DNA of 49,847 bases, taken from an uncultured Methanosarcinales archaeon (GTDB taxonomy: Archaea > Nanobdellota > Nanobdellia > Woesearchaeales > WJKV01). This document shows positions 5,228 through 44,304 of the stretch, one piece after another. The DNA lies in contig CAZNVD010000006.1 of assembly GCA_964576505.1 (NCBI GenBank), positions 741 through 50,587 on the forward strand. The letters are read 5' to 3'. The position numbers and the translations under genes were made by a program. Below the pieces are notes generated by a model. The model did not search any database and was not told where the DNA came from. It was given only the letters and a program-made list of their open reading frames with translations. Numbering within the stretch: position 1 is the stretch's first letter; each line of letters starts with the position of its first letter.

Positions 5228-5327
5228 TATAGTGGAGGAACAATAATTAAACTAAAAATATTTGCTCCACTATATCCGAAGAGCTTTACAAATTATTATT
5301 ATTAAAACTTAAAGCTCTTCGTTATAC
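5228..5327. repeat. Double-hairpin element, copy 2 (right direct repeat; overlaps the 3-prime end of the GT2 gene)
   Basis: Hairpin 1 pairs 5228-5237 with 5265-5274. Hairpin 2 pairs CGAAGAGCTTTA (5277-5288) with TAAAGCTCTTCG (5310-5321). The right arm of hairpin 2 encodes the last codons (KYNEEL stop) of 5309..6058. Confidence 0.8.
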
Positions 5328-6058: not shown

Positions 6059-6158
6059 CGCTAAAGGAAAATATCAGGTGTTTATTAAAATGATTGGAAC
6101 AAGTCAAACCTTCTGCCCTATCGTTAAACATATTAATTAGATTCATTCACCAACCGCG

Positions 6159-7889: not shown

Positions 7890-8358
7890 TAACACAGAAA
7901 ATCCCAAAAGGATTTTCTGGGTCCCCGGAAATTGGAATAACAAATTAGAGCCGCCTACAGGTAGTAGTCTTCGAACTGTGGTTGGTGGTTCTCCAATTTC
8001 CGATGTAAAAAAGGAAGCTTTGTATGCCGCATTCGCAGCAGTTACCACATTTGCAATATTATTCATTCTGTATTTCACTAATCCTCTCCTTACCACAATC
8101 CGTCTTACTCTCTCCTATCTTTACTTTTTTACTTTGCCTGGTGTACTTATACTCACATTATTCTTTGATCTTGATGCATTCACGCGATACATAATTGGAA
8201 CCATTTTGGGAATGGCAGTCTACGGCATCCTCACCTATTACATCCTGGTGATATTCCCTGTCAACATTCACGACTTCTATTTTTATGTCCCACTACTGCT
8301 TGTATTCTTGATTCTCGGAATCAAACGCATCTCAGTTTCATTTGAAACAAAAGACTAG
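7876..8358 (+). CDS. Small 4-TM membrane protein (hypothetical)
   Basis: 160 aa. It overlaps the upstream gene by 14 nt. It has four hydrophobic helices. Confidence 0.4.
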   Translation: MSSIDNTENPKRIFWVPGNWNNKLEPPTGSSLRTVVGGSPISDVKKEALYAAFAAVTTFAILFILYFTNPLLTTIRLTLSYLYFFTLPGVLILTLFFDLDAFTRYIIGTILGMAVYGILTYYILVIFPVNIHDFYFYVPLLLVFLILGIKRISVSFETKD

Positions 8359-8409
8359 ATTTCTCTTACATAAACCTTTAAAACCCAAAACTCACGCTCT
8401 ATCCTATTT

Positions 8410-9597: not shown

Positions 9598-10438
9598 AGC
9601 ACAACCAGCAAACTTGAAACAGAAAGTAAGAAAGCACTGGAACGAAAATCCAATGGATTATGACACAGTCCACGCTCCACTGGGATCAAAAGAATATTAC
9701 AATCAGATAAATCAGCAATTCTACGAAGTCTGCTACTTTGGCCAGGACAAAGGTCAGCCAATATTTTCAAAGATAATTAATTACAGCAAACTAAAAGGAA
9801 AAAAAGTATTGGAAATTGGATGCGGCTCAGGAACAATCGCTCGCCAACTCGCAGCATCAGGAGCAATCTTTACTGCAGTCGACCTTACTCCGCAAGCAAT
9901 TGCAAATACTAAAAAGCAACTAGAATTCGCCCACCTTAAAGCAGATGTAAGAGAAGCTGACGCCGAAAACCTTCCCTTCAAAGACGAGACATTCGATTTC
10001 GTCTGGTCATGGGGCGTTATCCATCATACTCCTGACACTCCAAAGGCAGCCAGTGAAATTTACCGTGTCCTTAAAAAAGGAGGCCAGGCCAGTATTATGA
10101 TCTACCATAAGAATTCTCTTTTCTATTATGGTGCTGTCATGTTTTTCAGAGGAATTATTCAGGGCAGACTATTCAAAATGTCAGCTCAGAAACTTCTGAA
10201 TCTCTACACAGACCATGGCCACAAAGGCGGAACTCCATTAGCAAAATGCTACACTAAACGCCAGGCAAGAAAAATGTTTAACAAATTTTCAGACATCCGT
10301 TTCTCTGTTTACGGTTTGAAAAATGAAGTCTATGTCATTCCATTTTTGAGACCATTGTGCTACAAACTCCCTAATTTTATTCCCAACAGCATTCTCAGAT
10401 TCTTTGGTTGGTATCTAATGATCAGAGCAAAGAAATAA
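9584..10438 (+). CDS. Class I SAM-dependent methyltransferase
   Basis: 284 aa. Motif I is VLEIGCGSGTIARQLA. There is an acidic residue at the end of strand 2 (VDLT) and a FDFVWSWGVIHH motif. Confidence 0.75.
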   Translation: MNMSKAQPANLKQKVRKHWNENPMDYDTVHAPLGSKEYYNQINQQFYEVCYFGQDKGQPIFSKIINYSKLKGKKVLEIGCGSGTIARQLAASGAIFTAVDLTPQAIANTKKQLEFAHLKADVREADAENLPFKDETFDFVWSWGVIHHTPDTPKAASEIYRVLKKGGQASIMIYHKNSLFYYGAVMFFRGIIQGRLFKMSAQKLLNLYTDHGHKGGTPLAKCYTKRQARKMFNKFSDIRFSVYGLKNEVYVIPFLRPLCYKLPNFIPNSILRFFGWYLMIRAKK

Positions 10439-12247
10439 TTACTGGCTCATCCACCTTTCAAACCATAAATTAAACATTATGATTGTTAAGAACAGCTGGG
10501 AATAATCTTTTTTGCCTTTTTGATGCTCTTCCCAGTATTTCAACAATTTTGATGTATCATAATATTCATAATCCTTAAAATTAAACATAATATCATGTGC
10601 AAACTGTTTAAGTTCATTTCTGAAATAATCTGCAAACGGCACACAGAAACTTTGCTTCCGTCTATAAACAATATCTTTTGGTAGGAACTGTTCAGCCGCT
10701 TTCTTCAAAATATACTTTGTTCTTCCCCTGCGATATTTATATTTCGTTGCAAGATGGTTCGCCCAATCAACAAATTCATGATCTAGAAACGGCACTCTTC
10801 CTTCAAGGCTTGTCCCAAGGCATGCCATATCTTCTTTATGCAGTAAATCATTAGGAAGATATTCGTGTTGATCAAAACTATAAGCGTCCAATACAGTTCC
10901 GCTTTCAAAGTACTGTTCAAACTGATTAAACAAACCCGTGTTTATCTCAAAGAATTTTTGTCCATCTGCAGAAAAGAGCTGAGCATACGCTTCATACAAG
11001 CTTGATGCACTCAAAACATTCTTTGCCCTACCAGCCCGATCACTAACAATCTGAAACGCTCGGCTCGCAGCCACTGCTGACTTTTGCAAAACCGAAGGCA
11101 TCTTCCTCATTTTTGCAACAATTGAATAATGCCTATGTCTTGGATATCCCTGAAACAACTCATCTCCACCAGTTCCCGACAAACAAACAGTAACATGTTT
11201 CCGTGCAACTTGTGCAACAAGATAGGTTGGCAGTGTACTCTGATCTGCAAACGGTTCATCAAAGAAATTGACGAGCTCAAGTAGATGCTTCTTCACATCC
11301 TCTGCAGTAAATTGAACATTGTAGTGGTCTGTCTTCAGCAGCTCAGCAACCTTTTTACTATGAGCTGACTCATCAAATCCAGCCCGATCAAATGAAACCG
11401 AAAACGTCTTAAGATTCTTTGCGTGCTTCCTCATCAGCGCGGTAATTAGCGAACTATCTATTCCGCCAGAAAGAAACGCTCCCACTGGAACATCAGCAAT
11501 CATCCGTCTTTTCACAGATAAATCAAGTCTCTCAATAAGTTCCTTGACAAGATCTTTCTCCTTTCCTTTAATAGATTCTGAAAAGGACAACTCCCAATAC
11601 TTCTCAACCTTCAATTCATTTGTTTCAAGATCATACGTCATATGACATCCAGGTGCAAGCTTCTTAACACCTTTGATTATTGTCTCTTCAAGCGGAGTAT
11701 ACCCAAACATAAGATAATGCTGCATTGCATTATGATCAATCTCTTTTTTCACAAGTCCTGACTCAAGAAATACTTTCAACTCTGATGCAAACATGAATTT
11801 TCCAAAGTGTGAATAATACAGCAAAGGTCTTATCCCCAGTCTATCTCTCGCCATAAACAATTTTTTGTTTTTCTTGTCATAAATGCAGAACGAAAACTGG
11901 CCATTGAAATGTTTCACACAATCAGTTCCATACTCCTCATAAGCATGAACAATTACTTCTGTATCAGTATCTGTGTAAAACTCATGACCTCTTTTCTCTA
12001 GCTCGTCTTTTATCTCTTTAAAATTATAAATTTCTCCATTAAAAACAACAAATACACTTTTGTCTTCATTAGTCATCGGTTGCCTTCCGTTCTCAGAAAG
12101 ATCAATAATTGACAATCTTCTATGTCCGAGACTTACAGAATCATCAGAATAATAACCGTCTTGATCAGGCCCTCTATGCTCCAGCAGATGTGCTAATTTT
12201 TTTACCAGCGCTGCGCTCTTCCAGTTGAATCCAATAATGCCACACAT
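10439..12247 (-). CDS. asnB: Asparagine synthase (glutamine-hydrolysing)-family amidotransferase
   Basis: 602 aa. It has the N-terminal MCGIIG Ntn nucleophile and the SGGIDSS PP-loop. The context suggests sugar amidation rather than Asn synthesis. Confidence 0.8.
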   Translation of the reverse strand: MCGIIGFNWKSAALVKKLAHLLEHRGPDQDGYYSDDSVSLGHRRLSIIDLSENGRQPMTNEDKSVFVVFNGEIYNFKEIKDELEKRGHEFYTDTDTEVIVHAYEEYGTDCVKHFNGQFSFCIYDKKNKKLFMARDRLGIRPLLYYSHFGKFMFASELKVFLESGLVKKEIDHNAMQHYLMFGYTPLEETIIKGVKKLAPGCHMTYDLETNELKVEKYWELSFSESIKGKEKDLVKELIERLDLSVKRRMIADVPVGAFLSGGIDSSLITALMRKHAKNLKTFSVSFDRAGFDESAHSKKVAELLKTDHYNVQFTAEDVKKHLLELVNFFDEPFADQSTLPTYLVAQVARKHVTVCLSGTGGDELFQGYPRHRHYSIVAKMRKMPSVLQKSAVAASRAFQIVSDRAGRAKNVLSASSLYEAYAQLFSADGQKFFEINTGLFNQFEQYFESGTVLDAYSFDQHEYLPNDLLHKEDMACLGTSLEGRVPFLDHEFVDWANHLATKYKYRRGRTKYILKKAAEQFLPKDIVYRRKQSFCVPFADYFRNELKQFAHDIMFNFKDYEYYDTSKLLKYWEEHQKGKKDYSQLFLTIIMFNLWFERWMSQ

Positions 12248-12280
12248 AAGATTTCTCCACTAGAATTTTGCTGCTGAAAG

Positions 12281-12288
12281 TTTATAAA
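12281..12288 (+). promoter_or_regulatory. TATA box (TTTATAAA) for the GT4 gene starting at 12313
   Basis: It lies 25-32 nt upstream of the ATG at 12313, which implies a leaderless transcript. Confidence 0.4.
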
Positions 12289-12312
12289 CATTGTGCAATA
12301 CCATTCGTCAAT

Positions 12313-13377
12313 ATGACTCTTAAACCTCAAAATTCTGCAAAGAAGAGCGTGTACTTCTACTCAAATATTCTATTTATCGACTATGAGGAAGAAGGACTTG
12401 AAAAAATAAAAAGAAAAATTTATGACGCTTGTTCCAAAGAACTAACTATGTCGTCAGACAAAAACTCAGATCTTTACATTATTCACACTGCAGGTTTTAG
12501 TGAGTTTGCAAAAAAATGGTTATTTGGTCCAAGAAAAGCAAAAGCCATTGTTTCACTTCATTCAGATCCAAATCCTCCATTTTTTGATATACTGTGGAGT
12601 AACATTCAATACTTCAGGTATTTTTACAGTTCATCTATGGACATTTTTCCATTCTATAACCGAATATTTTTCACAGTCGTGAATCAAGCTGTTAGTCTGG
12701 TTCCATTGTGGATGAAGAGATTTTTTCTCAACAAAACAGAAATTCTGACAGTTCCAAGCAAAACATTGTTGACTAAATTTCCAAAGGCAATAGTAATCCA
12801 TGACGGTATTGACACAAACCGTTTCAAACCACTACCATCAAAACGATCCACCATTGCAGTTGGCTACGTAGGTCATCCTACTCCAAACAAAGGTCTTATC
12901 GAAGTTCTCAAGGCATTCTCAAAAATCAAAGATGCAAACTTAACGAAAGTTGCCGCTCTCAGTTATTTGAATAAAAAAATGATCTCAACAGTCCATAAAT
13001 TCGATACATCCACGGAAGTATTAGGAAGACAAAAAGATATTGTAAAGTTATATAATGATATTGACATTGTGGTGCTTCCATACCGTCACACTTCTGGTGG
13101 TGTCGCCACACCGCTTGTTCTTCTTGAAGCCATGTCTTGTGGATGCACAGTTATCACCTCAGATCTGCCTTCAATAAGAGAAATTGGTGGAGACACAGTA
13201 CTCTACTGCAAACCATACGATATAGATTCTATTGTTTCAATGATTCATCACGCAACCAAGCATCCTGAGTTGCGAAAGAAACTGGGACAAGCCGCAAGAA
13301 AAAGAGTTGTTGAACTGTACAATGAAGAGAAAATGCTTAAATCCTACATGGATCTTTACCGAGGTGAACTAAATTGA
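12313..13377 (+). CDS. GT4 family glycosyltransferase
   Basis: The track ORF begins at TTG 12268, only 20 nt from the divergent asnB start. ATG 12313 with an upstream TATA is more plausible. The C-terminal motif is SGGVATPLVLLEAMSCGCTVITSDLPSIREI. Confidence 0.7.
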   Translation: MTLKPQNSAKKSVYFYSNILFIDYEEEGLEKIKRKIYDACSKELTMSSDKNSDLYIIHTAGFSEFAKKWLFGPRKAKAIVSLHSDPNPPFFDILWSNIQYFRYFYSSSMDIFPFYNRIFFTVVNQAVSLVPLWMKRFFLNKTEILTVPSKTLLTKFPKAIVIHDGIDTNRFKPLPSKRSTIAVGYVGHPTPNKGLIEVLKAFSKIKDANLTKVAALSYLNKKMISTVHKFDTSTEVLGRQKDIVKLYNDIDIVVLPYRHTSGGVATPLVLLEAMSCGCTVITSDLPSIREIGGDTVLYCKPYDIDSIVSMIHHATKHPELRKKLGQAARKRVVELYNEEKMLKSYMDLYRGELN

Positions 13378-14057
13378 AATTTACTACAAGCTGGGATGAC
13401 GGCCATGCATTAGACATCCGCCTCTGTAACCTTTTGAATAAATACAAAATCAAAGCCACCTTTTACATTCCAATCTCTGCTATCAACACCTCCCTCACAC
13501 TTTCCCAGCTAAAAGCAATTTCAAAGCATCATGAAATTGGTGCTCACACAATCACTCACCGAAATCTCCCTGATTTGACTCAAGAAGAACAATGGACTGA
13601 GATCTCTGACTCAAAAAAGATCCTTGAAAAAAAGCTCAATATAAAAATTCAAAGTTTCTGCTATCCTCGGGGTAAATTCAATAAAACAACAGTAAAGCTG
13701 GTCTCAGACGCAGGCTTCACCTACGGAAGAACAACTGAAAGATTTTGTTTCTCACTTCCAAAGAATCCATTAGTTTCAGGCACCACTATGCAAACCTTGT
13801 TATTCAAAGCCGACCTCCCTCGATTCATTCGACTGATGAACTTTACTCCATCATCTTTACGTGGTCTCTATGACTGGAATTTCGCTGCAAAATCATTACT
13901 AAACTACGCGCAAAAGCACGATGGCATCTTCCATCTCTGGGGTCATTCCTGGGAAATCGACAAATTCCGGCAATGGAATGCATTAGAACGTTTCTTCAAA
14001 CTTGTTTCAAAAGAATCAAATTGCAACTCAGTAACTAATAGGAATCTTCTTTCCTAA
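13374..14057 (+). CDS. Polysaccharide deacetylase (NodB homology domain, CE4)
   Basis: 227 aa. Motifs are TSWDDGH and HTITH. It overlaps the upstream GT4 gene by 4 nt. Confidence 0.7.
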   Translation: MKFTTSWDDGHALDIRLCNLLNKYKIKATFYIPISAINTSLTLSQLKAISKHHEIGAHTITHRNLPDLTQEEQWTEISDSKKILEKKLNIKIQSFCYPRGKFNKTTVKLVSDAGFTYGRTTERFCFSLPKNPLVSGTTMQTLLFKADLPRFIRLMNFTPSSLRGLYDWNFAAKSLLNYAQKHDGIFHLWGHSWEIDKFRQWNALERFFKLVSKESNCNSVTNRNLLS

Positions 14058-14060
14058 CCC

Positions 14061-14783
14061 CTATCTTTTCTTGACAATCACAAATAGTTGGGTTCTCCAG
14101 CTAATTGGAAGAGGAAAATGAGCTTCAAGATATGCTGCAATATTTTTGAGTACTGGAATCTGATATAGTGTCCGTGGATACGAAAACAATCCAGTTATTT
14201 GATAATTATATTTTTTGAAATATCCCCTGATCTCTCGCATTGTGTACAGCTTTGTTCTTTTCTTGAACGGATTAAGAAGTAACGCAAGCATTGTCCATGG
14301 CGATCCTCTATTTGGGAAATCGCAAACAACCATTCCACCTTTCTTTGTCACACGGTGCATTTCACGGAAGGCTTGCTTGAAATCAGGCATATGCATTAAT
14401 ACATGAACACTATACACCCCATCAAAAGTTTCATCATCATGAGGAATCGCTTCTATATCTCCCATCATTGTTGGTATGTGATATTGCCATCTTTTGCATT
14501 TCCGCCGAAGCTCATACAACATTTTCTCAGAAGCATCAAACCCAGTACAATCAAATCCCGCCTTATGCATTGGAATCAACAACCTTCCAGTCCCGCACCC
14601 GGCTTCAAGTATGTGATGAACTTTCGCCTTCTTGAATATTGACTTCAGCAATTGGATTTGAAGCAAATCAACCCTTTTCCCTTCAAATGTAACAGAACGC
14701 TGTTCATCATAGGTTTGAGCGTCCTTCTCATAATAGGAAAGAAACTGTTCTTTATTCTTGAATGCCTTTCTATATCCAGCCAT
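14061..14783 (-). CDS. Class I SAM-dependent methyltransferase
   Basis: 240 aa. Motif I is ILEAGCGTGRLL. FDGVYSVHVLMH is also present. Confidence 0.75.
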   Translation of the reverse strand: MAGYRKAFKNKEQFLSYYEKDAQTYDEQRSVTFEGKRVDLLQIQLLKSIFKKAKVHHILEAGCGTGRLLIPMHKAGFDCTGFDASEKMLYELRRKCKRWQYHIPTMMGDIEAIPHDDETFDGVYSVHVLMHMPDFKQAFREMHRVTKKGGMVVCDFPNRGSPWTMLALLLNPFKKRTKLYTMREIRGYFKKYNYQITGLFSYPRTLYQIPVLKNIAAYLEAHFPLPISWRTQLFVIVKKR

Positions 14784-14867
14784 GATCTATCTGCTCAAAA
14801 CTCCTTTTTAAAGCTTTATGGTATGAGCCTTCATTATATTTAAAAAGGACTATTTTAAAGAAACTCC

Positions 14868-15869
14868 ATGGAAAAAATTGTTGCAGTCCGTTTCGGCATG
14901 GAAAAAGCCCACGATGTAAATGAAGCCTGGTTTGCAGCCATCGGCATCCAGAAATCTTATCCTTTCAACATTTTCACCTCAAGAAAGCTTCTTTCATTCC
15001 TCGGCCCTGTAAACCAATTATTTGGTGTAATCAACAACCTATTTTTGCCAAAAGCAGATCTCTACCTTTTAACCAGCCTGGGCTGTACCATTTCAGTTGT
15101 CTTCAAAAAGAAACTTTTCAACAGAAAAATAATCTCAATCACCTCTGACACATTCTTCAGAGATCTGGACTCTGCAAACTGGTTGAAAAAGAAATATATG
15201 CTCTGGCTTGTAAAACATATTGATGCAATCATTGCAACTTCTGAAATGATGAAAGAACTCGCCTGCAAATACACATCCGTTCCAGTTCAGGTTGTTTACC
15301 CATATTGCGATACAACTAAGTTCCTCAAAATCAAACCTGATTACACTTCAAAAAATCTATGCTCTATCGGCATTGGCACAAACACAAAAGGAACTGACTT
15401 GCTTCTTGAAACATTTGCAACCGTGCAACAAACGATTCCCGAATCAAAGCTATTTGTTCCTGGAGACACCGCCATGTATCCCAAAATTAGCGAAGCAGAT
15501 GGTGTAATTGCTCCCGGTATTACAGACATAGTTCCTTACCTGACAAAGTCATCTCTCTACTTAAACACCTCCCGCCACGAATCATTCGGCGTAAACATTC
15601 TCGAGGCAATGTCTTCAGCCCTCCCAGTCATAGTAACAGATCACTGCGGAGCAGCTGAAATTGTAAGAAAAGTTGACAAGTCATTAGTCGTGTCTGTAAA
15701 CAGTAAAGTAATAGCAGAAAAGGCTATCTCACTTCTTAACCAGCCCAAAAAACTGGCTCTGTTAGGAGAACAGTGCAGAAAAGAGGCAAAAAAATATACC
15801 AAAGAAAAAAGCTGTAATGAATTCAAAAAGGCATTTACTGAATTAACTGCTCACTTGCTGAATTCTTGA
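14868..15869 (+). CDS. GT4 family glycosyltransferase
   Basis: 333 aa. The motif is ESFGVNILEAMSSALPVIVTDHCGAAEIV. A TATA-like ATTATATTTAAAA lies at 14834-14846. Confidence 0.7.
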   Translation: MEKIVAVRFGMEKAHDVNEAWFAAIGIQKSYPFNIFTSRKLLSFLGPVNQLFGVINNLFLPKADLYLLTSLGCTISVVFKKKLFNRKIISITSDTFFRDLDSANWLKKKYMLWLVKHIDAIIATSEMMKELACKYTSVPVQVVYPYCDTTKFLKIKPDYTSKNLCSIGIGTNTKGTDLLLETFATVQQTIPESKLFVPGDTAMYPKISEADGVIAPGITDIVPYLTKSSLYLNTSRHESFGVNILEAMSSALPVIVTDHCGAAEIVRKVDKSLVVSVNSKVIAEKAISLLNQPKKLALLGEQCRKEAKKYTKEKSCNEFKKAFTELTAHLLNS

Positions 15870-15916
15870 ATGCATTTTAATAAACTTTAAATAGTGACTA
15901 AAACCGTGAAATAGAG

Positions 15917-17719
15917 ATGGAAAGAGAAATAGATGAAGGCCGCCTGGTAATATTTGCCCCACATCCAGATGATGAATGGATTGGCTGCGGATGCTCAATT
16001 CTGAAATGCCGTGATCACAAAGTTCCAGTAAAAGTTATTCTAGTCACCTCTCGTTTGGAATGGAGAGTAAAGCGTGCAAAAGAGCTTGCTCAAAAATATG
16101 ATTACGAACTAGTCCTTCTCAATCAGGAGGAATTTAACATCAATGGCCAGCTATTGAGAGAAGCATGTATCAAGGAAATAAAACCTGACGACGTAGTATT
16201 CATCCCTCCATGTGATAACCATCCAGATCACCGTTTCATTCACAGAATTGTTTCAACAACTATCCAAAACAAACATTTGTACGAATACGCAATTTACAAT
16301 AACGCATCAAACCTATTCACAAAGCTCAAAAATAAATTCCATGCAATAAAAACAGGCGCAACCATTCCAAGTTTCACCCATGGCACCGGAAAAACCCTGA
16401 AATACAAAAGTGAAACAAAAATAAAAAACATCCAGTCATACAAAGAATACCCTCGTGAAATTGATGTATTCAGAAAAATCCCGCTTACAAAGCGCCGCTC
16501 AAAACGCAAATACAACATCGCATTTCTCACTAAAGATTATCCTGTTGGAACAGTTGATGCCGGATTCACAAGTATCATGAGTCTGGCTAAACAACTCAAA
16601 GAACAAGGTCATTTCGTTGCACTAATCAGCAACAAAGGCTATGCATCCTGGTATGAAAAGGCAGCCGATAAATCATATGAAGAATTTCAGGGCATTCCAA
16701 TCTACCGCCCATACGGTTTGAAATGGTTCAATGTTGAAAAGTGGCATATCAACCCGGCCACTCTCTTCAATCGTTTGATCGCTCCAGCTCTGGGAGTAAG
16801 ATATGTCCAGAAAAAGCTTGGAATCAAATTCCACATAATCCATCATTCAAGTGCAGCTCCGTATATGTTCGCAGCCGCAATCTTGGCAGGATTCTTTGCT
16901 CCAACTGCAAGATTGTTCCAGACTATTCGCGCAGAAACAGTATATGGTCTTTGGGGTTACAAGTTATCAAAGCTATTGAACTGGGCAGATGCAGTTTTTG
17001 TTCCCCTCAAATCTTTAGCCGACACAATAGTGGCCGACGGCTGCGATCAAAAACGAATTCGCATCATGCATTCAGCAATTTCTCTGAAGCAGATGCAAAA
17101 ACTTCATCAGGAGCCTTCAGTTCTCAGAAGACAGTATGAAGTTGGACCTGATGACAAAGTAGTTCTCTACTACGGAAAGAGCGGTCATTACAAAGGAGTC
17201 GACATTTTGCTTCAATCAATTAAATTCATTCCAAAGACTGAAAAAATTAAGTTCTTATTTTTCCATCCAGTCATTTGGCTCCCTGAATTCGTAAAACTTG
17301 CAGAAGAATCAAAAAACAAAGATAAAATCCGCATGAGCGTTGGAAAAATCTCGGTTCCAGACCACTTGAATATGGCTGATGTCCTCGTACTTCCTTATCG
17401 AAGTCTGAAAGGCACCGAAGCTAATCCACTTTGCCTTCTAGAAGGTATGGCCTCAGCCACTCCAATCATCACAACAGAAATTCCAGAACTAAAGGAATTA
17501 GTGGAAAAAGACAAAGACGTAGTCATGGTCCAGCCTGAAAATCCAGAAGCCCTGGCAAAAGAAATCCTCAAACTTCTCAAAGACAGAAAAAGAGGTCAGC
17601 TTTTGGCAGACAACGCATACTCCACAGTCAAAAAGTTTGACATATCATATATTTCGGATCGCCACATGGATGTCTATGACTCAAGCATGTGTAAATATAG
17701 GAGAGGACTATATTCTTAA
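15917..17719 (+). CDS. Fusion protein: N-terminal PIG-L/LmbE-family N-acetylglucosaminyl deacetylase plus C-terminal GT4 glycosyltransferase
   Basis: 600 aa. The N-terminus has VIFAPHPDDEWIGCG and NHPDH, the PIG-L zinc-site motifs. The C-terminus has a GT4 E-x7-E region (EANPLCLLEGMASATPIITTEIPELKELV). Confidence 0.75.
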   Translation: MEREIDEGRLVIFAPHPDDEWIGCGCSILKCRDHKVPVKVILVTSRLEWRVKRAKELAQKYDYELVLLNQEEFNINGQLLREACIKEIKPDDVVFIPPCDNHPDHRFIHRIVSTTIQNKHLYEYAIYNNASNLFTKLKNKFHAIKTGATIPSFTHGTGKTLKYKSETKIKNIQSYKEYPREIDVFRKIPLTKRRSKRKYNIAFLTKDYPVGTVDAGFTSIMSLAKQLKEQGHFVALISNKGYASWYEKAADKSYEEFQGIPIYRPYGLKWFNVEKWHINPATLFNRLIAPALGVRYVQKKLGIKFHIIHHSSAAPYMFAAAILAGFFAPTARLFQTIRAETVYGLWGYKLSKLLNWADAVFVPLKSLADTIVADGCDQKRIRIMHSAISLKQMQKLHQEPSVLRRQYEVGPDDKVVLYYGKSGHYKGVDILLQSIKFIPKTEKIKFLFFHPVIWLPEFVKLAEESKNKDKIRMSVGKISVPDHLNMADVLVLPYRSLKGTEANPLCLLEGMASATPIITTEIPELKELVEKDKDVVMVQPENPEALAKEILKLLKDRKRGQLLADNAYSTVKKFDISYISDRHMDVYDSSMCKYRRGLYS

Positions 17720-17790
17720 CATGGAAGTCCTCTGCTATATTCGGGGAATGTAACAAATTATAATTAAAAACTCACATTCCCCGTTATAAC
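17701..17790. repeat. Double-hairpin element, copy 3 (diverged, with compensatory stem changes)
   Basis: Hairpin 1 pairs AGAGGACT (17702-17709) with AGTCCTCT (17726-17733). Hairpin 2 pairs CGGGGAATGT (17742-17751) with ACATTCCCCG (17774-17783). Loop and flank motifs (CTATATTCG, ACAAATTA, ATTAAAA, CGTTATA) are shared with copies 1 and 2. It sits in a convergent intergenic region. Confidence 0.7.
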
Positions 17791-17822
17791 TTGGATTCTT
17801 TAGTTTCTTGAAACAAATGCAA

Positions 17823-18422
17823 CTATTGTTTCTTCAGATGTGTAACAATGCTCTCCATAATCTCAGAAATCGATTTGCTTGCATCAATCTGCAGCGGTCT
17901 AATAATTGGGTTCGCTTTATTGAACACAATTTCAGACTCACGATATACTGTTTCATCATGCACATCTTCTTTTCTGCGCAGTTGCGCTTGTTTCTTTGGC
18001 AGTGAAACAAAAATATATTTGGCATTTCCTGTGGGCATACCTCGAATCAGTGATCTGAGTCTATCAGGATGCGACACAAGAAACTCTCGTAAGTGAGGGG
18101 CCTGAGTCAGAATCTGCACAAACCCATGATCTGAAACAAACAATCCTGTTTTTGCATACTTCTTCCAGAAATAAAGCGAAAGATAAAAGTCATGAATACA
18201 TCCAAGCGCTTGTCTCCAGATTCCTCTCTTGGAAATTCGAATCCCCATCCACATAATTTTCATTGCAAATCCTGGAGACATCAAAATATTCCCTAAAACT
18301 TGCAGGTTGTAGCTCTTATTATCAATCGCCTGCAATCTATTTATTCCTTTAAGCTTTCTACTAAGCAATGCAGCTTGTGTACTCTTCCCAGCTCCTGGCA
18401 ATCCATATAATTCAATGTACAT
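17823..18422 (-). CDS. P-loop NTPase/kinase (dNMP-kinase-like fold), function unknown
   Basis: 199 aa. An N-terminal Walker A (YGLPGAGKST) is present. Size and layout resemble small nucleotide or sugar kinases. Confidence 0.5.
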   Translation of the reverse strand: MYIELYGLPGAGKSTQAALLSRKLKGINRLQAIDNKSYNLQVLGNILMSPGFAMKIMWMGIRISKRGIWRQALGCIHDFYLSLYFWKKYAKTGLFVSDHGFVQILTQAPHLREFLVSHPDRLRSLIRGMPTGNAKYIFVSLPKKQAQLRRKEDVHDETVYRESEIVFNKANPIIRPLQIDASKSISEIMESIVTHLKKQ

Positions 18423-18445
18423 TTCATCATTTTACCTAAGATAGC

Positions 18446-18453
18446 TTTATAAA
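18446..18453 (+). promoter_or_regulatory. TATA box (TTTATAAA) for the methyltransferase gene
   Basis: It lies 17-24 nt upstream of the in-frame ATG at 18470. It argues against the GTG 18458 track start. Confidence 0.35.
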
Positions 18454-18457
18454 CGTT

Positions 18458-19237
18458 GTGAAACTCAGTATGGAGAGATATATGGCACCAAAACAAAAAC
18501 TCTCAGCTGAAATGGTTGCAGAGAATTACAATAAATCCGTTCCATCAGATTACGCAGGCAACTACGAATTCTACAGATGGTTCAATGAACGCTGGTCCTG
18601 GGAAGACTATAGAATGTCCTTCCTCTCACTGAATTTGCATTTATCAAAATTAAATCCGAAAAACACCCTTGAAATCGGCCCTGGCCCTGGCACCTGGACT
18701 AAACTTTTGTTAAACAAAAATCCAGACATGAAAATCACTCTTGTTGATGTTTCAGAAGCAATGCTTGAACAATGCAAACAAAACCTTTTCACTCGTCCCA
18801 ACTTGAAATTCGTGCTCGGCGACTTCACAACAATCCCTATAAAAGGCACCTTTGATTTCTTCTTTTCATCAAGAACTATCGAATATTTGCCAGACAAAGA
18901 AACCGCTGTAACAAGAATCTACACCCTTTTAGATACAAACGCATCTGGAATCATTGTAACCAAGAATCCAGGTTCCTTAGGTCGCATTCTCTCTCTATTA
19001 ATAGGCCGCAAACCATCCGCAATGCATTCAGGCCAGATCTCTGCAAAAGATTTTTCTGAATTGCTTACAAAAGTTGGTTTCAAAAACATTGAAGTCTACC
19101 CGAGTATTATGGCATTCCCTCCAGTAAAGCGCATTCATTTCATGACCAGAATCCTCTGGAAAATGTTCTACAAGAAGCCATTAAACTGGTTCTCAAGTCT
19201 ATTGAGTGAAAGTTATATCATAACATTCAATAAGTAA
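18458..19237 (+). CDS. Class I SAM-dependent methyltransferase
   Basis: 259 aa in the track; the probable true start is ATG 18470. Motif I is TLEIGPGPGTWT. The stop abuts the stop of the convergent downstream gene. Confidence 0.7.
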   Translation: MKLSMERYMAPKQKLSAEMVAENYNKSVPSDYAGNYEFYRWFNERWSWEDYRMSFLSLNLHLSKLNPKNTLEIGPGPGTWTKLLLNKNPDMKITLVDVSEAMLEQCKQNLFTRPNLKFVLGDFTTIPIKGTFDFFFSSRTIEYLPDKETAVTRIYTLLDTNASGIIVTKNPGSLGRILSLLIGRKPSAMHSGQISAKDFSELLTKVGFKNIEVYPSIMAFPPVKRIHFMTRILWKMFYKKPLNWFSSLLSESYIITFNK

Positions 19238-20509
19238 TTATTTTAATTTATTTATCACAATCTCCATAACTTTATTCAATGTTTTCTCTGGAGTATCTGA
19301 TAATACTTTTGTTGCATGAGTCTTTGCAACAATCGTTTCAAACAGTTTCTCCTGCCTTTTCAAATCTTCTAGATCATGATCTGGCTTCCTTTTATGTAGA
19401 ACTTCCGGTTTATTATACAAATACACTGTTTCACTCGCCTTCGGCATCACAAGAAACAATAGATTCTTTAGAAACTGGGGAACATGCTTCATTAACAATA
19501 TATCAGACGCATATCTATCAGTAATCACAATATGCATTCTCATCCGTTTTGGAAATATTTTGAACCAGTATCTCACCCATAAATCAAGTGCAAACACAGG
19601 AGCAGCCATAGTTCTAAGAACCTTTGTCCACCTGCTCTCCCCATTATTCTCGGCCCGATCCACCTTTGTCTTCACCCTTCTTCCAATCGCTTGAATCGGC
19701 AATACATTCCCTTTTCCCCGACCAGTATATAGCACAGTGCATTTCACCAGACTTTTCTTAAAAATCTCTTCAATGTTTTGTGTAACTGTCGTCTTCCCTG
19801 CTCCATCCATTCCAATAATTGATACAAGCGGACAAGGCGCAAACACCTTGGTCAATCCCCATGCACAACTTCCATATGTAATCCACATGTAACGATGAAA
19901 CGATCGCAACTGAAAGTATCTTTTGATTCGATTAATGTGTGGTGTAAGATCACTTCGAGAACTCACTACTTTCGCCCATCTCTCTCCTAATGCAAATGTT
20001 AATCTTTTCTCCACCTCTTGAGGCCTGCATTTCTTAACTAATTTCTTTATCCGATCTATATATTTCTCAGTAAAAGTTCCTTTATTCAAAATGCAATGAA
20101 GCAACAACAAACAATAATAATCACAATCATCAGGTACAAAATAATTCTTTATTTTTTTTCGTCTGCTAAAAAGCTGATTTCCAGGAAAATATGCCAGGTG
20201 AGGCCCATGTACATCATCAATATGAAAATGGATCGAAATCATCCGTTGACATTCAGGAACATACTTAACATACGCGCGATGTGGCGAAAATGGACTAATC
20301 ACGAGGCGAATAAATCCTGTTTTCAAGAGTACTTGCTGTGCAGTATCAACATGTTCCTTCCGCACTAAAACATCTAAATCTCCTCCTTCATAGAATTGTT
20401 TCTCTGCAAGGAATTCATAATTTCGCACTATGCACCACAAAACTTGATTTTCGTTCCAGGAATCAAATACCTTATTAAACGTTTCAAAATACTCAGTCGT
20501 TTTCATCAT
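19238..20509 (-). CDS. Fusion: N-terminal minimal nucleotidyltransferase-fold domain plus C-terminal P-loop (thymidylate-kinase-like) domain
   Basis: 423 aa. GGDLDVLV is an NTase-type motif near the N-terminus. A Walker A (IIGMDGAGKTT) sits at about residue 235, followed by a DR.. motif (ITDRY). Confidence 0.5.
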   Translation of the reverse strand: MMKTTEYFETFNKVFDSWNENQVLWCIVRNYEFLAEKQFYEGGDLDVLVRKEHVDTAQQVLLKTGFIRLVISPFSPHRAYVKYVPECQRMISIHFHIDDVHGPHLAYFPGNQLFSRRKKIKNYFVPDDCDYYCLLLLHCILNKGTFTEKYIDRIKKLVKKCRPQEVEKRLTFALGERWAKVVSSRSDLTPHINRIKRYFQLRSFHRYMWITYGSCAWGLTKVFAPCPLVSIIGMDGAGKTTVTQNIEEIFKKSLVKCTVLYTGRGKGNVLPIQAIGRRVKTKVDRAENNGESRWTKVLRTMAAPVFALDLWVRYWFKIFPKRMRMHIVITDRYASDILLMKHVPQFLKNLLFLVMPKASETVYLYNKPEVLHKRKPDHDLEDLKRQEKLFETIVAKTHATKVLSDTPEKTLNKVMEIVINKLK

Positions 20510-21990
20510 CGTTTCACCAATACTGCCCAGTATTGTTTAACCTCATCAACATTAATGACTTTAAACATCTTGAGTACGCAGCAATACACAATCACTCCCC
20601 CGGCAACGCACACAACCAACTCCAAATACGTTTGCAGGCTTATACTTTTCCTCAGCAAATCAATAACAAAAACAAAAATTACTCCACCAACAGCAACCTT
20701 TCCCCAATCAATCCATGGAATCTTTACCTCTACTAATTTTACCAGGTAATAACACGACATCAAAAGCGCCAAGCCATATGACGCAGTAGTTGTAATAGCC
20801 GCCCCTACAATCCCATAAGTAGGAATTAACAATAAATTACCAACTAGATTAAGCCCTGCCGCCACCCCAATAATTATTGTAACAATCTGCGGTTTTCCCA
20901 ACGCTGCAATCACATCTTGATTTATCTTACTCACTGAAAAAGCAATCACCCCTATAAGCAGAATTTTGAAAGCTGAAACCCCACTTACATATTCAGCCCC
21001 GAAAAAAATGCTGATGAAAAGATTTCCATACACAAACACTGCAAGAATCGCGGGCACCAGCACAATAAAAGCATACGTATGAAGCACCCTCACGCACTGA
21101 TTTATTCGTTTCACATCCCCTTTCCCTTTCAGTTCAGATATCAAAGGAAACAAAACAATCGATATAGCTTGGCTTGCAAACAAGAAAAGCAAAGCAGAAG
21201 GAAGCACCACATTATATACTCCCACTTCTTCAAGTGTTCTGTAATAAGTAAGCATCAATGTATCCAGTTGGCTGATTATTCTGCTTCCAATACTTGTAAA
21301 CAACGACGCACTTCCATAAAAAAATAGTTGCTTTGAAACCGCCTTGAAATTATTCATCTTGTGTGAAAACAAAGAAAAGCTTGACAGCATAGGATAAATT
21401 AGCATCACACTAACAGCCAGCCAGCCTGCGATGTGCGCATATATTGGAACATAAACAGATGCACTTGACTTGAACATAATCACAACAACTCCACAAACCA
21501 CCAGCAACCTTACTACCTCGCTGCCTGAAAACCAAACAACTCTCTGGAATCCTTGGGCAGCGCTCCTCAGAAACACCCCAAAAAAGCTGATTAGAATGTA
21601 TACAGCAAATAAATTCACCAGCATTAATGCCTGACTATCTCTGAAAAAATGAACACTCAAATATTCAGAACTGAAATAAAGCGCAACCGCAAATAGTACT
21701 GAAACAATGAGTTGCAAAAGAAACACTGAAACAATCGCAGCTTTAATTTCTCTGTATTTTTTTCCTGCCTTGAATTCAGCAATATACTTTACAAGTGCCT
21801 GATTCAGTCCAAGATCCCTGAAAAACAGAAGAAAGCTGATAAATCCAAATACAGAATAAAACAGTCCATATTCAGCAACAGAAAGCTGCCGTGCCAGAAT
21901 TATGCGAAGAACATATCCAAGTCCACTGGTAGCAATGATTGACCCCATTGCAAACAGCCCGCCGCGAACCGCTTTTTGTCCGTAATTCAT
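20506..21990 (-). CDS. MOP-superfamily oligosaccharide/polysaccharide flippase (Wzx/RfbX-like)
   Basis: 494 aa. It has about 12-14 TM helices. It lies between the glycan-assembly genes and aglB. Confidence 0.7.
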   Translation of the reverse strand: MNYGQKAVRGGLFAMGSIIATSGLGYVLRIILARQLSVAEYGLFYSVFGFISFLLFFRDLGLNQALVKYIAEFKAGKKYREIKAAIVSVFLLQLIVSVLFAVALYFSSEYLSVHFFRDSQALMLVNLFAVYILISFFGVFLRSAAQGFQRVVWFSGSEVVRLLVVCGVVVIMFKSSASVYVPIYAHIAGWLAVSVMLIYPMLSSFSLFSHKMNNFKAVSKQLFFYGSASLFTSIGSRIISQLDTLMLTYYRTLEEVGVYNVVLPSALLFLFASQAISIVLFPLISELKGKGDVKRINQCVRVLHTYAFIVLVPAILAVFVYGNLFISIFFGAEYVSGVSAFKILLIGVIAFSVSKINQDVIAALGKPQIVTIIIGVAAGLNLVGNLLLIPTYGIVGAAITTTASYGLALLMSCYYLVKLVEVKIPWIDWGKVAVGGVIFVFVIDLLRKSISLQTYLELVVCVAGGVIVYCCVLKMFKVINVDEVKQYWAVLVKR

Positions 21991-22039: not shown

Positions 22040-25000
22040 TTAAGCAGTCCTTAACTGCACACTATCAACCACAATTATATGATAACCAAACTGCGTTTTT
22101 ACTGGCTCTGAAATCTGACCTGGTGCCAGCTTGTTGAAAACAGCATCTTCAAACTCTTTAACCATTACTCCTCTGGGGAACCACCCAAGATCTCCACCAC
22201 TTGCTTTACTTCCTGGACCTTCATAATACTTCTTTGCAAACTCAAAAAACCGAAAATCCAAATAAGCTTCTTTCATAAGTTCAGCTCTTATCTCTGTAAC
22301 TTTCTTTAGCGCCTCAGTTTCCCCAATAATTTGGCTGCTTACCAGAATATGTCTCGCATGAGCAAATAATTGCGGTTTAGCAGGCTCAAGCTGAGGCTTC
22401 TCCATTTGCTCAAATACATTAGTAATACTCGCCCCGCTCCAATCGACTTTAAAGACCTTTACATCTTCACCAGTAATGCTTTGCTTTGACGCAAACTGAT
22501 CAAAGTACTTCAACGTGTGTCCTTCAAGGAAGAACATTCGTGTAAACATACTTCTGCTTAACTCAGATGGTGTAAGCATAATTCTAAGTCCGGCTTTATC
22601 TTTCTGGGGTGCCAGCAAAATTTCATAATTTATGTCTGGCTGTTCAAATCTTATTGTGCTGATATTCTGCTTATTCACAACATTAAGTGCCGCAAAAGTA
22701 ACAGGTTGAACTGAAGTTCCTTGAACTCCTCTAATTAGACCATGAGTTGACGAAGCATTTGTAAGATCAATAACTATTTCCTGGAGCACAGTATCTTGAC
22801 TGATCTGCATATTCATTACACATCGTACCTTTACTCCTTCAGGCGCCTGACAATTTAACCAGCCGGTAAGATATGAAGGCCATCCGGAAATCCAGTTGTC
22901 TGGATTCGTTGTTTGAATCTCAACATAAGTTTGACTAGCATCCTGAGGTGAAAGATTGAACTTCTCCTGCAACACTTCAATTCCCTGAGTACGCTCAAGA
23001 TCATGAACATCTTTGTACATTGCAGCCTTATTGAAGTCCCAGCTTCCAAAGTGTGCCCACACTCCTGATTTACCAACCATATCCTCAGAGGCAATAAAGA
23101 AATTCTCAGGAGGTGTACAATGAGTGTACTGCAAAATATCTCCTGCTGCAATCGCATCAATGCCTTCTTGTTTCAACACCAGTTCAGCATTCCGTTTATC
23201 TCCTTGAACAACTCTGTAAAGAACTTTAACACTTTTCACATCATCTTTAACATATTTGTCAATTTCATCATACGCCTTTGTGCTTCCACATGCAAGCATC
23301 CTTAAAATTCCAACTGCTTCCTGCTCATTTTCAGTCATCAACACTTTTCCCATCCAGTGCGCGATAGGTAAATTTTGAGTTGCCCCGTCAAATGTTACTG
23401 GTCTATCAGCCATCGCCTTAAACCAGTGTCCGAAATCCCACCAGCTGCTGATAATTGCATTAGGCTGTGAATCATCCTTAATTGCAGTAAGAGCATCATT
23501 CCATGCATCATTAAAGCTGGGAATCTGACCATACGCAAGTGCATTAGCATCAATAACTGGAGGAACTACAAGGAACATCATAAATGCAAGTACAGCTAGT
23601 TGGCATGACCATTTGTAAATTCCAAGTTGCTGATGCAACCAGGGAACCAATTTTTGATAAACAATTCCCAAACAAGCAGCAAACGCCACCACATATACTG
23701 GTGCAAGCAATAATACAAATCTAACTCCTGATTGCGACGCATAAATAGTAGCCGCAAACCAGAAGTATATCAACATTCCATATTTAATGTCCACATGAGT
23801 GTATCTCATGTAAATACTCAGCACTACCATAGCCACAACAGGAACCGAAAGCAGACAAACAAACATGATTACAGAATTTGGAATACTGCTCAGTAATACA
23901 TAGAACCAAATTACACTTGCTCCCAAAAGGATTGCTGTAAATTTATCAATTTTCTCTCTTGTCATTGCAAGAACTAATCCCATTAAAGCGATCAGGAACA
24001 TGATCTTTCCGCCGAGTTGCGAAATTACTGCTGAAACAGATGCTGAATTAAGTTCTGCAACTGTTGTGTATACATTTGGCCAGATACTGAATGTTGCAAC
24101 ATTTTTGAAATGGAATATGAAATTAAATGGTCCCATTAATCCGCTCTTGAAACTCGCCCATGAATTGAAAATTAGCACCGACACAGCAGTCACACCAAGA
24201 TATACTCCTCCTGAAATGAGGCTCCGTTTTATTGTACCTGCTGCAAGCACATTTTTCTCTCTTATGTGGAAAATAATGTAATACCCAATGTAACATGCAA
24301 GAGTTCCTACAATAATCCATAGTATGTACCAGTAACCTGGCCATGCCCACGCATATAATCCGGTAAGAATACCTGCAAGACTCATTAACGCAATTTTCTT
24401 CCTTAACTCTTTAGATTCAAACCCTTCAATAAATAACCATAAAATATAGAGCGGGAAAAATACCTGGTAAATATCAGTATCTGGAATTCCTGCAGGTGTC
24501 CTGCTTAAAATTGTGCCATTGATACCAGCCAGAAGAGCAGCAACAAATCCGCCTAACAATCCGCTGATTCGTTTTGCAAGGAAGAAAGCAGGAATTACTG
24601 CAAGCGCTCCAAACAAAACTGGAATGTAAAAGAATGTAGTCATTAGCTCAACGCCAGGATTAAAGAACGAAATAAAGCGATGCCAGAATGCCGAAAACCT
24701 TACATGGAAATTCAGATCAACCGGTCTTCCAAGTGGTGCAAGTGAATGTGTATCATAAGGAGTTCCATTTCTTAATTCATCTCCTGGATGTCCATGATCA
24801 AGATAATTTTTTATAAATCTATAATAATGATATTCATCAAGCCCAAGGAGATATGTTTGTCCATTCTCATCCTGGAATTTTGTTTTATACTGTTGTGAAT
24901 ATTGTTTCTCAACTTCACTATACTTATCCACATTAGCGGCATACTCATCTGCTGCCTTTACTGATGCTTGTCTTTCAGCCGCGTCAGGTGGAAGAAAAGG

Positions 25001-25363
25001 CGCCTCTTTCCTTATCTCATCCATGTACTTATTCTTTAAGTTCACCATCAGTGTTTCATGCGCCCACTGATCAGTTATTGGAAGATAAGTAGAATAAACT
25101 CGGAAATAAATTGCAAAAAACATTGGAATCAATATGAGTAGAATTTGAAGTAATACTAATCCTCTTTTCCCTGAAAAGAAATTTTTAACATGAGCAAAAG
25201 AAAACGCTATCTCTTCAAGATCATCAGACTTACTTTCTGATCCTGATACCTGCTTTAATTCACTCTCGCTTTTTTTCTTACCAAACCATCCTTTTATCTT
25301 TGAGAAATCAAATGTCAGATCATCTTGCTCTGTCGATTTCTGAGGTATATCTTTCCGCTCCAT
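22040..25363 (-). CDS. aglB: Archaeal oligosaccharyltransferase AglB (STT3 family) with C-terminal PpiC/parvulin-type peptidyl-prolyl isomerase domain
   Basis: 1107 aa. It has 13 or more TM helices. EL1 carries LDEYHYYRF, followed by the IPDTD acidic motif, TVAE (a TIXE-type EL5 motif) and WWDFG at residues 641-645 (nt 23429-23443). The last 108 aa are ARHILV...GGDLGWFPRGVMVKEFEDAVF...TQFGYHIIVV, clear parvulin signatures comparable to E. coli PpiC. Confidence 0.85.
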   Translation of the reverse strand: MERKDIPQKSTEQDDLTFDFSKIKGWFGKKKSESELKQVSGSESKSDDLEEIAFSFAHVKNFFSGKRGLVLLQILLILIPMFFAIYFRVYSTYLPITDQWAHETLMVNLKNKYMDEIRKEAPFLPPDAAERQASVKAADEYAANVDKYSEVEKQYSQQYKTKFQDENGQTYLLGLDEYHYYRFIKNYLDHGHPGDELRNGTPYDTHSLAPLGRPVDLNFHVRFSAFWHRFISFFNPGVELMTTFFYIPVLFGALAVIPAFFLAKRISGLLGGFVAALLAGINGTILSRTPAGIPDTDIYQVFFPLYILWLFIEGFESKELRKKIALMSLAGILTGLYAWAWPGYWYILWIIVGTLACYIGYYIIFHIREKNVLAAGTIKRSLISGGVYLGVTAVSVLIFNSWASFKSGLMGPFNFIFHFKNVATFSIWPNVYTTVAELNSASVSAVISQLGGKIMFLIALMGLVLAMTREKIDKFTAILLGASVIWFYVLLSSIPNSVIMFVCLLSVPVVAMVVLSIYMRYTHVDIKYGMLIYFWFAATIYASQSGVRFVLLLAPVYVVAFAACLGIVYQKLVPWLHQQLGIYKWSCQLAVLAFMMFLVVPPVIDANALAYGQIPSFNDAWNDALTAIKDDSQPNAIISSWWDFGHWFKAMADRPVTFDGATQNLPIAHWMGKVLMTENEQEAVGILRMLACGSTKAYDEIDKYVKDDVKSVKVLYRVVQGDKRNAELVLKQEGIDAIAAGDILQYTHCTPPENFFIASEDMVGKSGVWAHFGSWDFNKAAMYKDVHDLERTQGIEVLQEKFNLSPQDASQTYVEIQTTNPDNWISGWPSYLTGWLNCQAPEGVKVRCVMNMQISQDTVLQEIVIDLTNASSTHGLIRGVQGTSVQPVTFAALNVVNKQNISTIRFEQPDINYEILLAPQKDKAGLRIMLTPSELSRSMFTRMFFLEGHTLKYFDQFASKQSITGEDVKVFKVDWSGASITNVFEQMEKPQLEPAKPQLFAHARHILVSSQIIGETEALKKVTEIRAELMKEAYLDFRFFEFAKKYYEGPGSKASGGDLGWFPRGVMVKEFEDAVFNKLAPGQISEPVKTQFGYHIIVVDSVQLRTA

Positions 25364-44303: not shown

Positions 44304-44304
44304 T

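Follow-up and report, generated by a model that had tools for sequence, protein, structure and literature searches.

A PrsA-type parvulin domain fused to the oligosaccharyltransferase AglB in Woesearchaeota-type archaea: a recurrent and apparently undescribed architecture

Layout and topology of the AglB–parvulin protein

We analysed a 49,847-nucleotide stretch (hereafter the window) of contig CAZNVD010000006.1 in assembly GCA_964576505.1, positions 741 to 50,587 of the forward strand, from an uncultured archaeon that GTDB places in the Woesearchaeales. Positions 22040..25363 of its minus strand hold a single uninterrupted reading frame of 1107 amino acids (aa), closed by one stop codon at its end; no N occurs anywhere in the window. 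The frame encodes an oligosaccharyltransferase (OST) of the AglB type followed by a parvulin domain; the stretch 22043-22366 corresponds to aa 1000-1107 of this protein. The first-pass annotation of this DNA had described a 1107-aa open reading frame (ORF) with the hallmarks of STT3/AglB that runs without a stop into a C-terminal parvulin, and this description stands: the motifs LDEYHYYRF, IPDTD, TVAE and WWDFG all lie where it had placed them, and one frame with one terminal stop spans both parts. An AlphaFold2 model of the full-length protein, for which an alignment of 120 homologues was the input, reached a mean predicted local distance difference test score (pLDDT) of 91.5 and a predicted template modelling score of 0.85. 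The protein is laid out as follows.

22040..25363, minus strand: complete AglB–parvulin fusion gene (single ORF; Pfam STT3 and Rotamase; AlphaFold2 model)
25169..25363, minus strand: N-terminal cytoplasmic extension, aa 1-65, disordered and Lys-rich (pLDDT 42-65)
23528..25168, minus strand: GT-C transmembrane domain, aa 66-612, with external loops EL1 and EL5 (hydrophobicity; Foldseek)
24815..24841, minus strand: EL1 motif LDEYHYYRF, aa 175-183, with the catalytic D176
24473..24487, minus strand: IPDTD motif, aa 293-297, with D295 and D297 (HMMER alignment to PglB 3rce)
24053..24064, minus strand: TVAE, aa 434-437, TIXE-type EL5 motif with E437
23429..23443, minus strand: WWDFG motif, aa 641-645 (aligned to PglB WWDYG 457-461)
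23057..23083, minus strand: presumptive DK-type motif DMVGKSGVW (D761, K765)
22439..23527, minus strand: extracytoplasmic C-terminal globular domain of AglB, aa 613-975 (pLDDT mostly >90 in the AlphaFold2 model)
22373..22438, minus strand: apparently flexible linker, aa 976-997, SGASITNVFEQMEKPQLEPAKPQL (low pLDDT)
22055..22372, minus strand: parvulin domain of the PpiC/PrsA type, aa 998-1103 (Pfam, PDB sequence match, Foldseek)

The transferase core bears every feature expected of its family. The Pfam STT3 profile (PF02516) matches aa 159-600 with an E value of 9.4e-45 and 154.3 bits against a cut-off of 24.5, and the conserved core, from the first transmembrane segment (TM1) to the end of the globular domain, measures 840-990 aa in all 120 homologues. 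Across their alignment R288, D295, D297, E437, R548, W641, W642, D643, G645, D761, M762, K765 and W769 are invariant, and D176 of EL1 is kept in at least 90% of the sequences. A HMMER alignment to Campylobacter lari PglB (3rce) pairs R288 with R147, D295/D297 with D154/D156, R548, the pyrophosphate-binding Arg, with R375, and WWDFG with WWDYG 457-461; TVAE in EL5 we take to be the TIXE/SVSE motif, the equivalence of both EL1 and EL5 being assigned from the motif and established knowledge. Foldseek matched the protein model to PglB 6gxc (E 8e-20, target TM-score 0.69), and further to Archaeoglobus fulgidus AglB (7e9s and 3wak) and to yeast and human STT3 (STT3A). Profile, GT-C fold with globular domain, catalytic residues, and WWDxG and DK-type motifs thus all place the protein in the STT3/AglB/PglB family. 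It falls outside the archaeosortase-A-associated AglB subfamily (NCBIfam TIGR04154; 74.6 bits against a cut-off of 450) and, judged by sequence matches, is of another AglB lineage, that of its Woesearchaeota and Nanoarchaeota matches.

The N-terminal extension, which carries 11 lysine or arginine residues in the 60 aa preceding TM1, ranges in length from 0 to 223 aa among the homologues. In the window protein it contains two copies of an (I/L)xFxF(S/A)x(I/V)K motif, at aa 14-31 and 50-67 (DDLTFDFSKIKGWFGKKK and EEIAFSFAHVKNFFSGKR), and one to three copies occur in about half of the AglB homologues. By eye, similar strings (EDSITFDFSFL and EDSFEFGKQIK) stand at the N-termini of two other membrane proteins of the window, encoded by the ORFs at 6159-7889 (plus strand) and 587-2413 (minus strand).

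The membrane side of the parvulin was read from hydrophobicity and structural comparison. Hydrophobic segments end at aa 612, and past aa 625 the 19-residue Kyte–Doolittle mean peaks at 0.77; since no hydrophobic segment lies beyond aa 612, aa 613-1107 should all reside on one side of the membrane. All solved PglB, AglB and STT3 structures place the WWDxG globular domain in the periplasm or outside the cell. Because the parvulin shares the side of the WWDFG domain and the model superposes on solved OST structures, the parvulin is extracytoplasmic, and the earlier placement of this domain outside the cell is borne out by the hydrophobicity profile and the superposition alike. The thioredoxin-like module that two sister proteins carry ahead of their parvulin (see below) is likewise of a periplasmic kind. 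Glycosylation sequons (N-x-S/T) are threefold enriched in the fused parvulins (44 observed against 14.7 expected from composition) and depleted in the cytoplasmic N-terminal extensions (34 against 52), counts that come from related sequences and are not independent. A cytoplasmic C-terminus was rejected on hydrophobicity, Foldseek matches and sequon distribution. Between the globular domain and the parvulin, the linker of about 22 aa (approximately aa 976-997) has the lowest confidence of the extracytoplasmic part of the model, with pLDDT 66-70 and values below 50 at aa 990-992; neither its sequence nor its length is conserved among fusions, and in the model it looks like a flexible tether.

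The fused parvulin and its closest relatives

The Pfam families Rotamase_3 and Rotamase (PF13616/PF00639) match aa 998-1100 with E values of 2.5e-21 and 2.7e-18 (76.8 and 67.2 bits against cut-offs of 22.5 and 21.7). In a PDB sequence search with the tail, PrsA 6xd8 was the best match (E 1e-17), with Cbf2/PEB4 and SurA also found; Foldseek aligned the tail to PrsA 6xd8 with a TM-score of 0.87, a root mean square deviation of 2.3 Å and 46% identity, and to Par14 3ui4 with a TM-score of 0.80. The tail had previously been aligned by eye to Escherichia coli PpiC; that match is real but weaker (NCBIfam PRK15441, E 8e-8), with parvulins of the PrsA, SurA and Cbf2 type being the closest. The PrsA equivalog profile (NCBIfam NF002846) scored 71.8 bits against a cut-off of 361, with only positions 135-221 of its 287 matched; because this covers the parvulin part alone, the tail may work like PrsA without being PrsA.

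Both active-site histidines are present, H1005 and H1095 (Pin1 H59 and H157), as is the proline pocket formed by L1059, M1067 and F1071 (Pin1 L122, M130 and F134). The Pin1 sequence used for this mapping is consistent with the PDB matches of the tail. Among 63 fusion proteins collected as described below, H1005 occurs in 63/63 and the residues of the pocket are strongly conserved.

Among archaeal sequences, the domain comes nearest to the parvulin in a stand-alone protein from the Nanoarchaeia (contig L028, 7407-8414; 53% identity). A second stand-alone protein resembling PrsA and SurA is encoded on contig L058 at 4317-5390; the two, from Nanoarchaeia/Woesearchaeota metagenome-assembled genomes, measure 335-357 aa and combine an N-terminal transmembrane anchor, a helical chaperone-like region and a parvulin with the catalytic Asp (SIDPGS). 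Their anchor implies an extracytoplasmic location, and their composition implies, by homology, a bacterial-style extracytoplasmic foldase in DPANN archaea; such proteins are likely the source or a sibling of the fused domain. With PrsA and a membrane-anchored PrsA-like protein of the Nanoarchaeia as its nearest relatives, the proposal that the tail is located like the extracellular foldase PrsA holds. The gene after the L028 PrsA-like gene resembles, by eye, an HtpX-type membrane protease.

Recurrence of the fusion, variation at the AglB C-terminus and gene neighbourhood

The architecture is not confined to the window. Among the 120 best database homologues, which are 35-49% identical to the window protein, 23 end in a parvulin at the extreme C-terminus, and the named organisms among these are all Woesearchaeota, Nanoarchaeota or unclassified 'archaeon'. 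An exhaustive profile search of 1.84 billion cluster representatives was then performed with a profile made of the last ~100 core residues and the parvulin, a fusion being counted where the core segment and then the parvulin were found in the same protein. It returned 63 distinct proteins with the core–parvulin junction, the named ones all from Woesearchaeota or Nanoarchaeota. Their parvulin identities span 25-74%, and their sources are NCBI, JGI, ENA and Logan assemblies; 38 reach 850 aa or more, the others being fragments from short contigs. A scan of genome contigs with the last 286 aa recovered mostly bacterial parvulins and few fusions (L001-L003). The fusion orthologue P0004 occurs on contigs from two different NCBI assemblies. 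In the window gene, GC content overall and at third codon positions is 0.395/0.29 in the parvulin and 0.389/0.32 in the core, and no long homopolymer occurs at the junction. That the fusion is in frame, as first described, and no artefact is therefore confirmed by the same junction in many independent assemblies. Over the 23 aligned fusions, pairs of proteins share on average 46% identity in the parvulin, 42% in the transmembrane part and 46% in the globular part; the added domain is conserved to the same degree as the enzyme that carries it, which indicates purifying selection.

No description of an STT3/AglB–parvulin, or AglB–prolyl isomerase, fusion was found in the literature, subscription-only papers lying outside the search, and a 2024 review of archaeal N-glycosylation mentions no isomerases, chaperones or fusions. 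Public copies are automatically labelled 'peptidylprolyl isomerase' (MCK4669678.1) or 'STT3 domain-containing protein'. The novelty suggested in the first-pass annotation hence survives in part: the architecture is apparently undescribed, but it is common in public data, where at least 63 distinct sequences sit under automatic names. In sum, the AglB–parvulin fusion is real, recurrent and, it appears, so far undescribed.

What follows the AglB core varies among the 120 homologues: nothing at all, an acidic tail of 20-92 aa, a parvulin (23 proteins), an FKBP domain, or a CxxC module and a parvulin. An FKBP-type peptidyl-prolyl isomerase (PPIase; PF00254, E 1.4e-19) takes the position of the parvulin in P0017, P0018 and P0070, which adjoin the parvulin fusion P0011 in the core tree; their FKBP tails hold several N-x-S/T sequons. 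In P0042 and P0116 (and the cluster member P0121), an extra module of ~85 aa with a CxxC motif stands between AglB core and parvulin, making a triple fusion. A Pfam scan gave no match for the thioredoxin-like insert of P0042 and P0116; a PDB sequence search showed it to be homologous to the periplasmic thioredoxin domain of Synechococcus VKOR (3kp8, E 4.8e-10), with CxxC and YPTW aligned. At the P0042 locus the divergent neighbour encodes a 583-aa GILT/DsbA-like thiol oxidoreductase.

The fused parvulins themselves diverge in one core subclade (P0022, P0041, P0042, P0059, P0090 and P0116), where the domain carries YSECSDxTxxCxLGWF. This places a Pin1-like Cys at the catalytic position (that of Pin1 C113) and a second Cys in place of the second Gly of GGDLG; the extra Cys pair makes a disulfide possible. 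In four of these members the second active-site His is replaced by Glu (GYEIV). The same replacement is found in 7/63 fusions overall, and among the 23 aligned fusions its carriers sit in this Cys-rich subclade.

About 50 of the 120 AglB homologues, most of those without a fusion, end instead in acidic low-complexity tails of 20-92 aa rich in N-x-S/T sequons (155 observed against 45.6 expected), and a motif NDSQDINTxNNS recurs in many. From their sequences, these may be self-glycosylated OST tails.

A direct comparison of loci was possible for P0004, a fusion, and P0009, which lacks one. Both share the order HTH, YjbQ, AAA_18, FAD reductase, ~190-aa gene, aglB, ~590-aa gene, and from these shared neighbours the loci are orthologous and differ only by the parvulin domain. 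No PPIase gene lies near aglB in the P0009 locus, the one syntenic locus examined in this Rosetta-stone comparison. A neighbour-joining tree of the core distributes the parvulin fusions over six or more groups; because its deep nodes are star-like, the tree is compatible both with one old fusion followed by many losses and with repeated gains.

Around the fusion gene, the window holds further components of a glycosylation pathway.

20506..21990, minus strand: Wzx/MATE-like lipid-linked glycan flippase (Pfam Polysacc_synt, E 6e-27)
5309..20509, no single strand assigned: glycan-biosynthesis gene cluster adjoining aglB (Pfam scans)

The flippase gene lies 50 bp downstream of aglB on the same strand. 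The cluster of ~15 kb, at whose end aglB stands, comprises one GT2 and several GT1/GT4 glycosyltransferases, methyltransferases, two deacetylases and an AsnB-like amidotransferase. The gene thus looks like that of a working AglB in an N-glycosylation locus, with the glycan cluster and flippase as context supportive of glycan transfer. Inside the cluster, 15917-17719 (plus strand) encodes a 600-aa fusion of a PIG-L-type GlcNAc de-N-acetylase and a GT4/GT1 glycosyltransferase. Directly upstream of aglB lies a 97-aa ORF (25426-25719, minus strand) without a Pfam match; its product is hydrophobic at the centre, with four Cys in a stretch resembling CGGPVMCGGVSHC, and ends in a His-rich sequence (HHSHHSSY).

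Three successive large ORFs at 41460-49834 (minus strand), of 947, 1123 and at least 708 aa, contain 44, 42 and 21 Cys and have no Pfam match; two carry N-terminal signal anchors, and all three are probably surface proteins. They had been put forward as clients of the OST–parvulin, an idea that finds no support in their sequons, the counts of which equal expectation (6 observed against 5.9 expected, 4 against 5.2 and 3 against 4.2). GC skew is strongly and uniformly negative over the whole window, 1-49847, at -0.05 to -0.34 per 2 kb and -4.8 cumulatively, with genes on both strands, and no tRNA or Rfam match was found in the 50-kb window.

A proposed tethered folding factor weighed against its alternatives

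We know of no solved or characterised AglB, PglB or STT3 that carries a folding-catalyst domain, nor of anything like accessory folding subunits described for archaeal or bacterial single-subunit OSTs. The window protein shares with AglB, PglB and STT3 (3WAJ/7E9S; 3RCE/6GXC) the GT-C fold, the extracytoplasmic globular domain and the set of catalytic motifs; unlike them, it continues past the globular domain into a linker and a parvulin. It is like Gram-positive PrsA (6XD8, 4WO7, 2JZV) in that PrsA gives the best domain match and is likewise membrane-tethered, on the same membrane side and near the secretion machinery. PrsA, however, is a free-standing lipoprotein whose N- and C-terminal chaperone regions form a dimeric crevice, whereas the window protein has the parvulin only and uses the OST as its anchor. 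The PrsA-like proteins of Nanoarchaeia and Woesearchaeota share a phylum-level lineage with the fused domain, yet they are stand-alone and possess the helical chaperone region and catalytic Asp described above.

Eukaryotic OSTs offer two further comparisons. Ost3/Ost6 and MagT1/TUSC3 are thioredoxin-fold OST subunits that act on cysteines near sequons of the unfolded substrate and modulate site occupancy (PMC4137057). They are non-covalent subunits acting on disulfides, not prolines, and the window protein is without a thioredoxin module; the analogy to them raised in the first-pass annotation gains direct support from the CxxC module of the sister proteins P0042 and P0116, a module homologous to the VKOR-associated periplasmic thioredoxin domain; for the window protein itself analogy is all that applies. 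The second comparison is with FKBP11, a PPIase-fold protein that sits lumenally beside STT3A, near OST-A, at the human ribosome–Sec61 translocon, where its site is buried by CCDC134 and an adaptor role has been proposed (PMC12804085); a structure of the FKBP11 translocon (PDB 9n9j) is among the Foldseek matches of the window protein model. FKBP11 is a membrane protein in its own right that the ribosome recruits, whereas the archaeal P0017, P0018 and P0070 fuse FKBP covalently to AglB.

From these data a model emerges that we hold to be rather probable: the window encodes a functional AglB extended by a linker and a PrsA-type parvulin, whose most likely role is that of a tethered foldase or holdase for surface proteins that have just been translocated and are not yet folded. 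AglB would glycosylate unfolded segments of proteins as they emerge on the outer face of the membrane. With the N-terminus in the cytoplasm, the parvulin would hang on the outer face by a leash of ~22 residues, within reach of the acceptor-peptide site, and would bind proline-containing stretches of the same unfolded chains. It could then either delay their collapse, keeping sequons accessible until glycosylation, or speed folding after transfer. Such a protein would be a single-polypeptide version both of the separate bacterial lipoprotein PrsA and of the accessory folding subunits of eukaryotic OST. The strongest argument that such coupling has been selected is that three unrelated families of folding catalyst occur at one C-terminal position: a parvulin, an FKBP, and a thioredoxin-like module set between core and parvulin. 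Architecture, conservation and topology are observed; action on the clients of the OST we infer, and isomerisation by the Gly1049 copy is uncertain, for the following reason.

Several observations weigh against the model of a tethered folding factor, at least in its catalytic form. The catalytic Cys or Asp, at the position of Pin1 C113, is missing from the window protein, which has Gly1049 there. This placement was read from two alignments without gaps, one to PrsA 6xd8 and one to the PrsA-like protein of the Nanoarchaeia, together with the Pin1 alignment; the Par14 alignment is ambiguous in the loop around Gly1049. The position is Asp in PrsA (B. subtilis D154, S. aureus D194; PMC2678132), so that the catalytic Asp of PrsA corresponds to Gly in the window protein, and nearly all bacterial parvulins from the genome-contig scan also have Asp. 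Gly is found at this position in 23/63 fusions, against Asp in 25 and Cys in 15. In addition, about 80% of the 120 closest relatives are without any folding domain, and the domain is therefore dispensable for OST function. The Asp of GGDLGWF was considered as the catalytic residue and rejected, as the Pin1 and PrsA alignments put the site eight or nine residues upstream, at the Gly.

Substitutions of Pin1 C113 lower activity and do not abolish binding, and the PPIase activity of PrsA is not essential for its foldase function in vivo. Much of the fusion family accordingly looks catalytically competent on its residues, while the window protein is one of a sizeable group of members whose catalysis may be weaker or altered, with binding kept. 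Because Gly1049 replaces the catalytic Asp or Cys, a foldase/holdase (chaperone) role is safer to claim than that of an isomerase. The link to prolyl isomerisation or chaperoning that the fusion was first taken to provide is thus qualified: histidines and pocket are kept, but PPIase activity is not to be assumed with Gly1049 in place.

The same residues admit an alternative that we regard as unlikely, in which the parvulin is a substrate-recruitment or selectivity module that presents the sequons of clients with Pro motifs (S-layer or pilin-like proteins), catalysis being lost or irrelevant. Gly1049 at the catalytic position, beside an intact proline pocket and both histidines, would suit such a module, as would the exchange of the second His for Glu in one subclade and the precedent of human FKBP11, a proposed adaptor at the OST-A translocon with its catalytic site buried (PMC12804085). 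Against it, the canonical Asp or Cys is kept in 40/63 fusions, suggesting that catalysis is maintained in much of the family, and general folding catalysis accounts better than recognition of a specific motif for the replacement by FKBP and the added CxxC thioredoxin module.

We give still less credence to a role in cis, whereby the domain would fold or stabilise the extracytoplasmic domain of AglB itself, or be an inert cap or spacer. Lineage-specific add-on units are reported for AglB C-terminal domains (bioRxiv 10.1101/2020.08.18.256065; PMC3703281), and other relatives have non-catalytic acidic tails at the same position. However, low pLDDT marks the linker as flexible, the nearest orthologues fold in the absence of the domain, conservation of the substrate pocket is strong, and three families of folding catalysts at one site are hard to explain as spacers. 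Finally, an artefact, whether misassembly, a missed stop or frameshift, or the merging of two adjacent genes, is a negligible prospect even for a window from a metagenome-type contig, given one junction in 63 distinct proteins of 25-74% parvulin identity from four assembly sources, one orthologue in two separate NCBI assemblies, and equal base composition on both sides of a junction free of long homopolymers; on these comparative grounds a frameshift or chimera is excluded for practical purposes.

The model of a tethered foldase or holdase can be extended, tentatively, from the window protein to its family. AglB of the Woesearchaeota-type DPANN archaea might be a modular platform to which folding catalysts are covalently attached, be it a parvulin, an FKBP, or a parvulin preceded by a VKOR-type thioredoxin. 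One polypeptide would then couple N-glycosylation with prolyl isomerisation or chaperoning and with disulfide chemistry where chains leave the secretion channel. Such a platform would be a prokaryotic counterpart, evolved independently, of the eukaryotic OST and its partners Ost3/6 and FKBP11, a view we hold to be somewhat less likely than not.

OSTs act only on unfolded sequons, and glycosylation and folding therefore compete for the same chain. In eukaryotes this competition is handled by the accessory subunits Ost3/6 and MagT1/TUSC3 and by FKBP11 as a partner at the translocon. A family of AglB proteins joined to folding catalysts would show that coupling between the two has been selected in prokaryotes too. 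If the model is true, the fusion would offer a minimal, single-chain and genetically simple system in which to ask how a tethered foldase alters site occupancy, and possible parts for bacterial glycoprotein engineering, where the competition between folding and glycosylation limits yield. For the archaea themselves, it points to an extracytoplasmic proteostasis machinery in the genome-reduced DPANN lineages, a little-known area of their biology.

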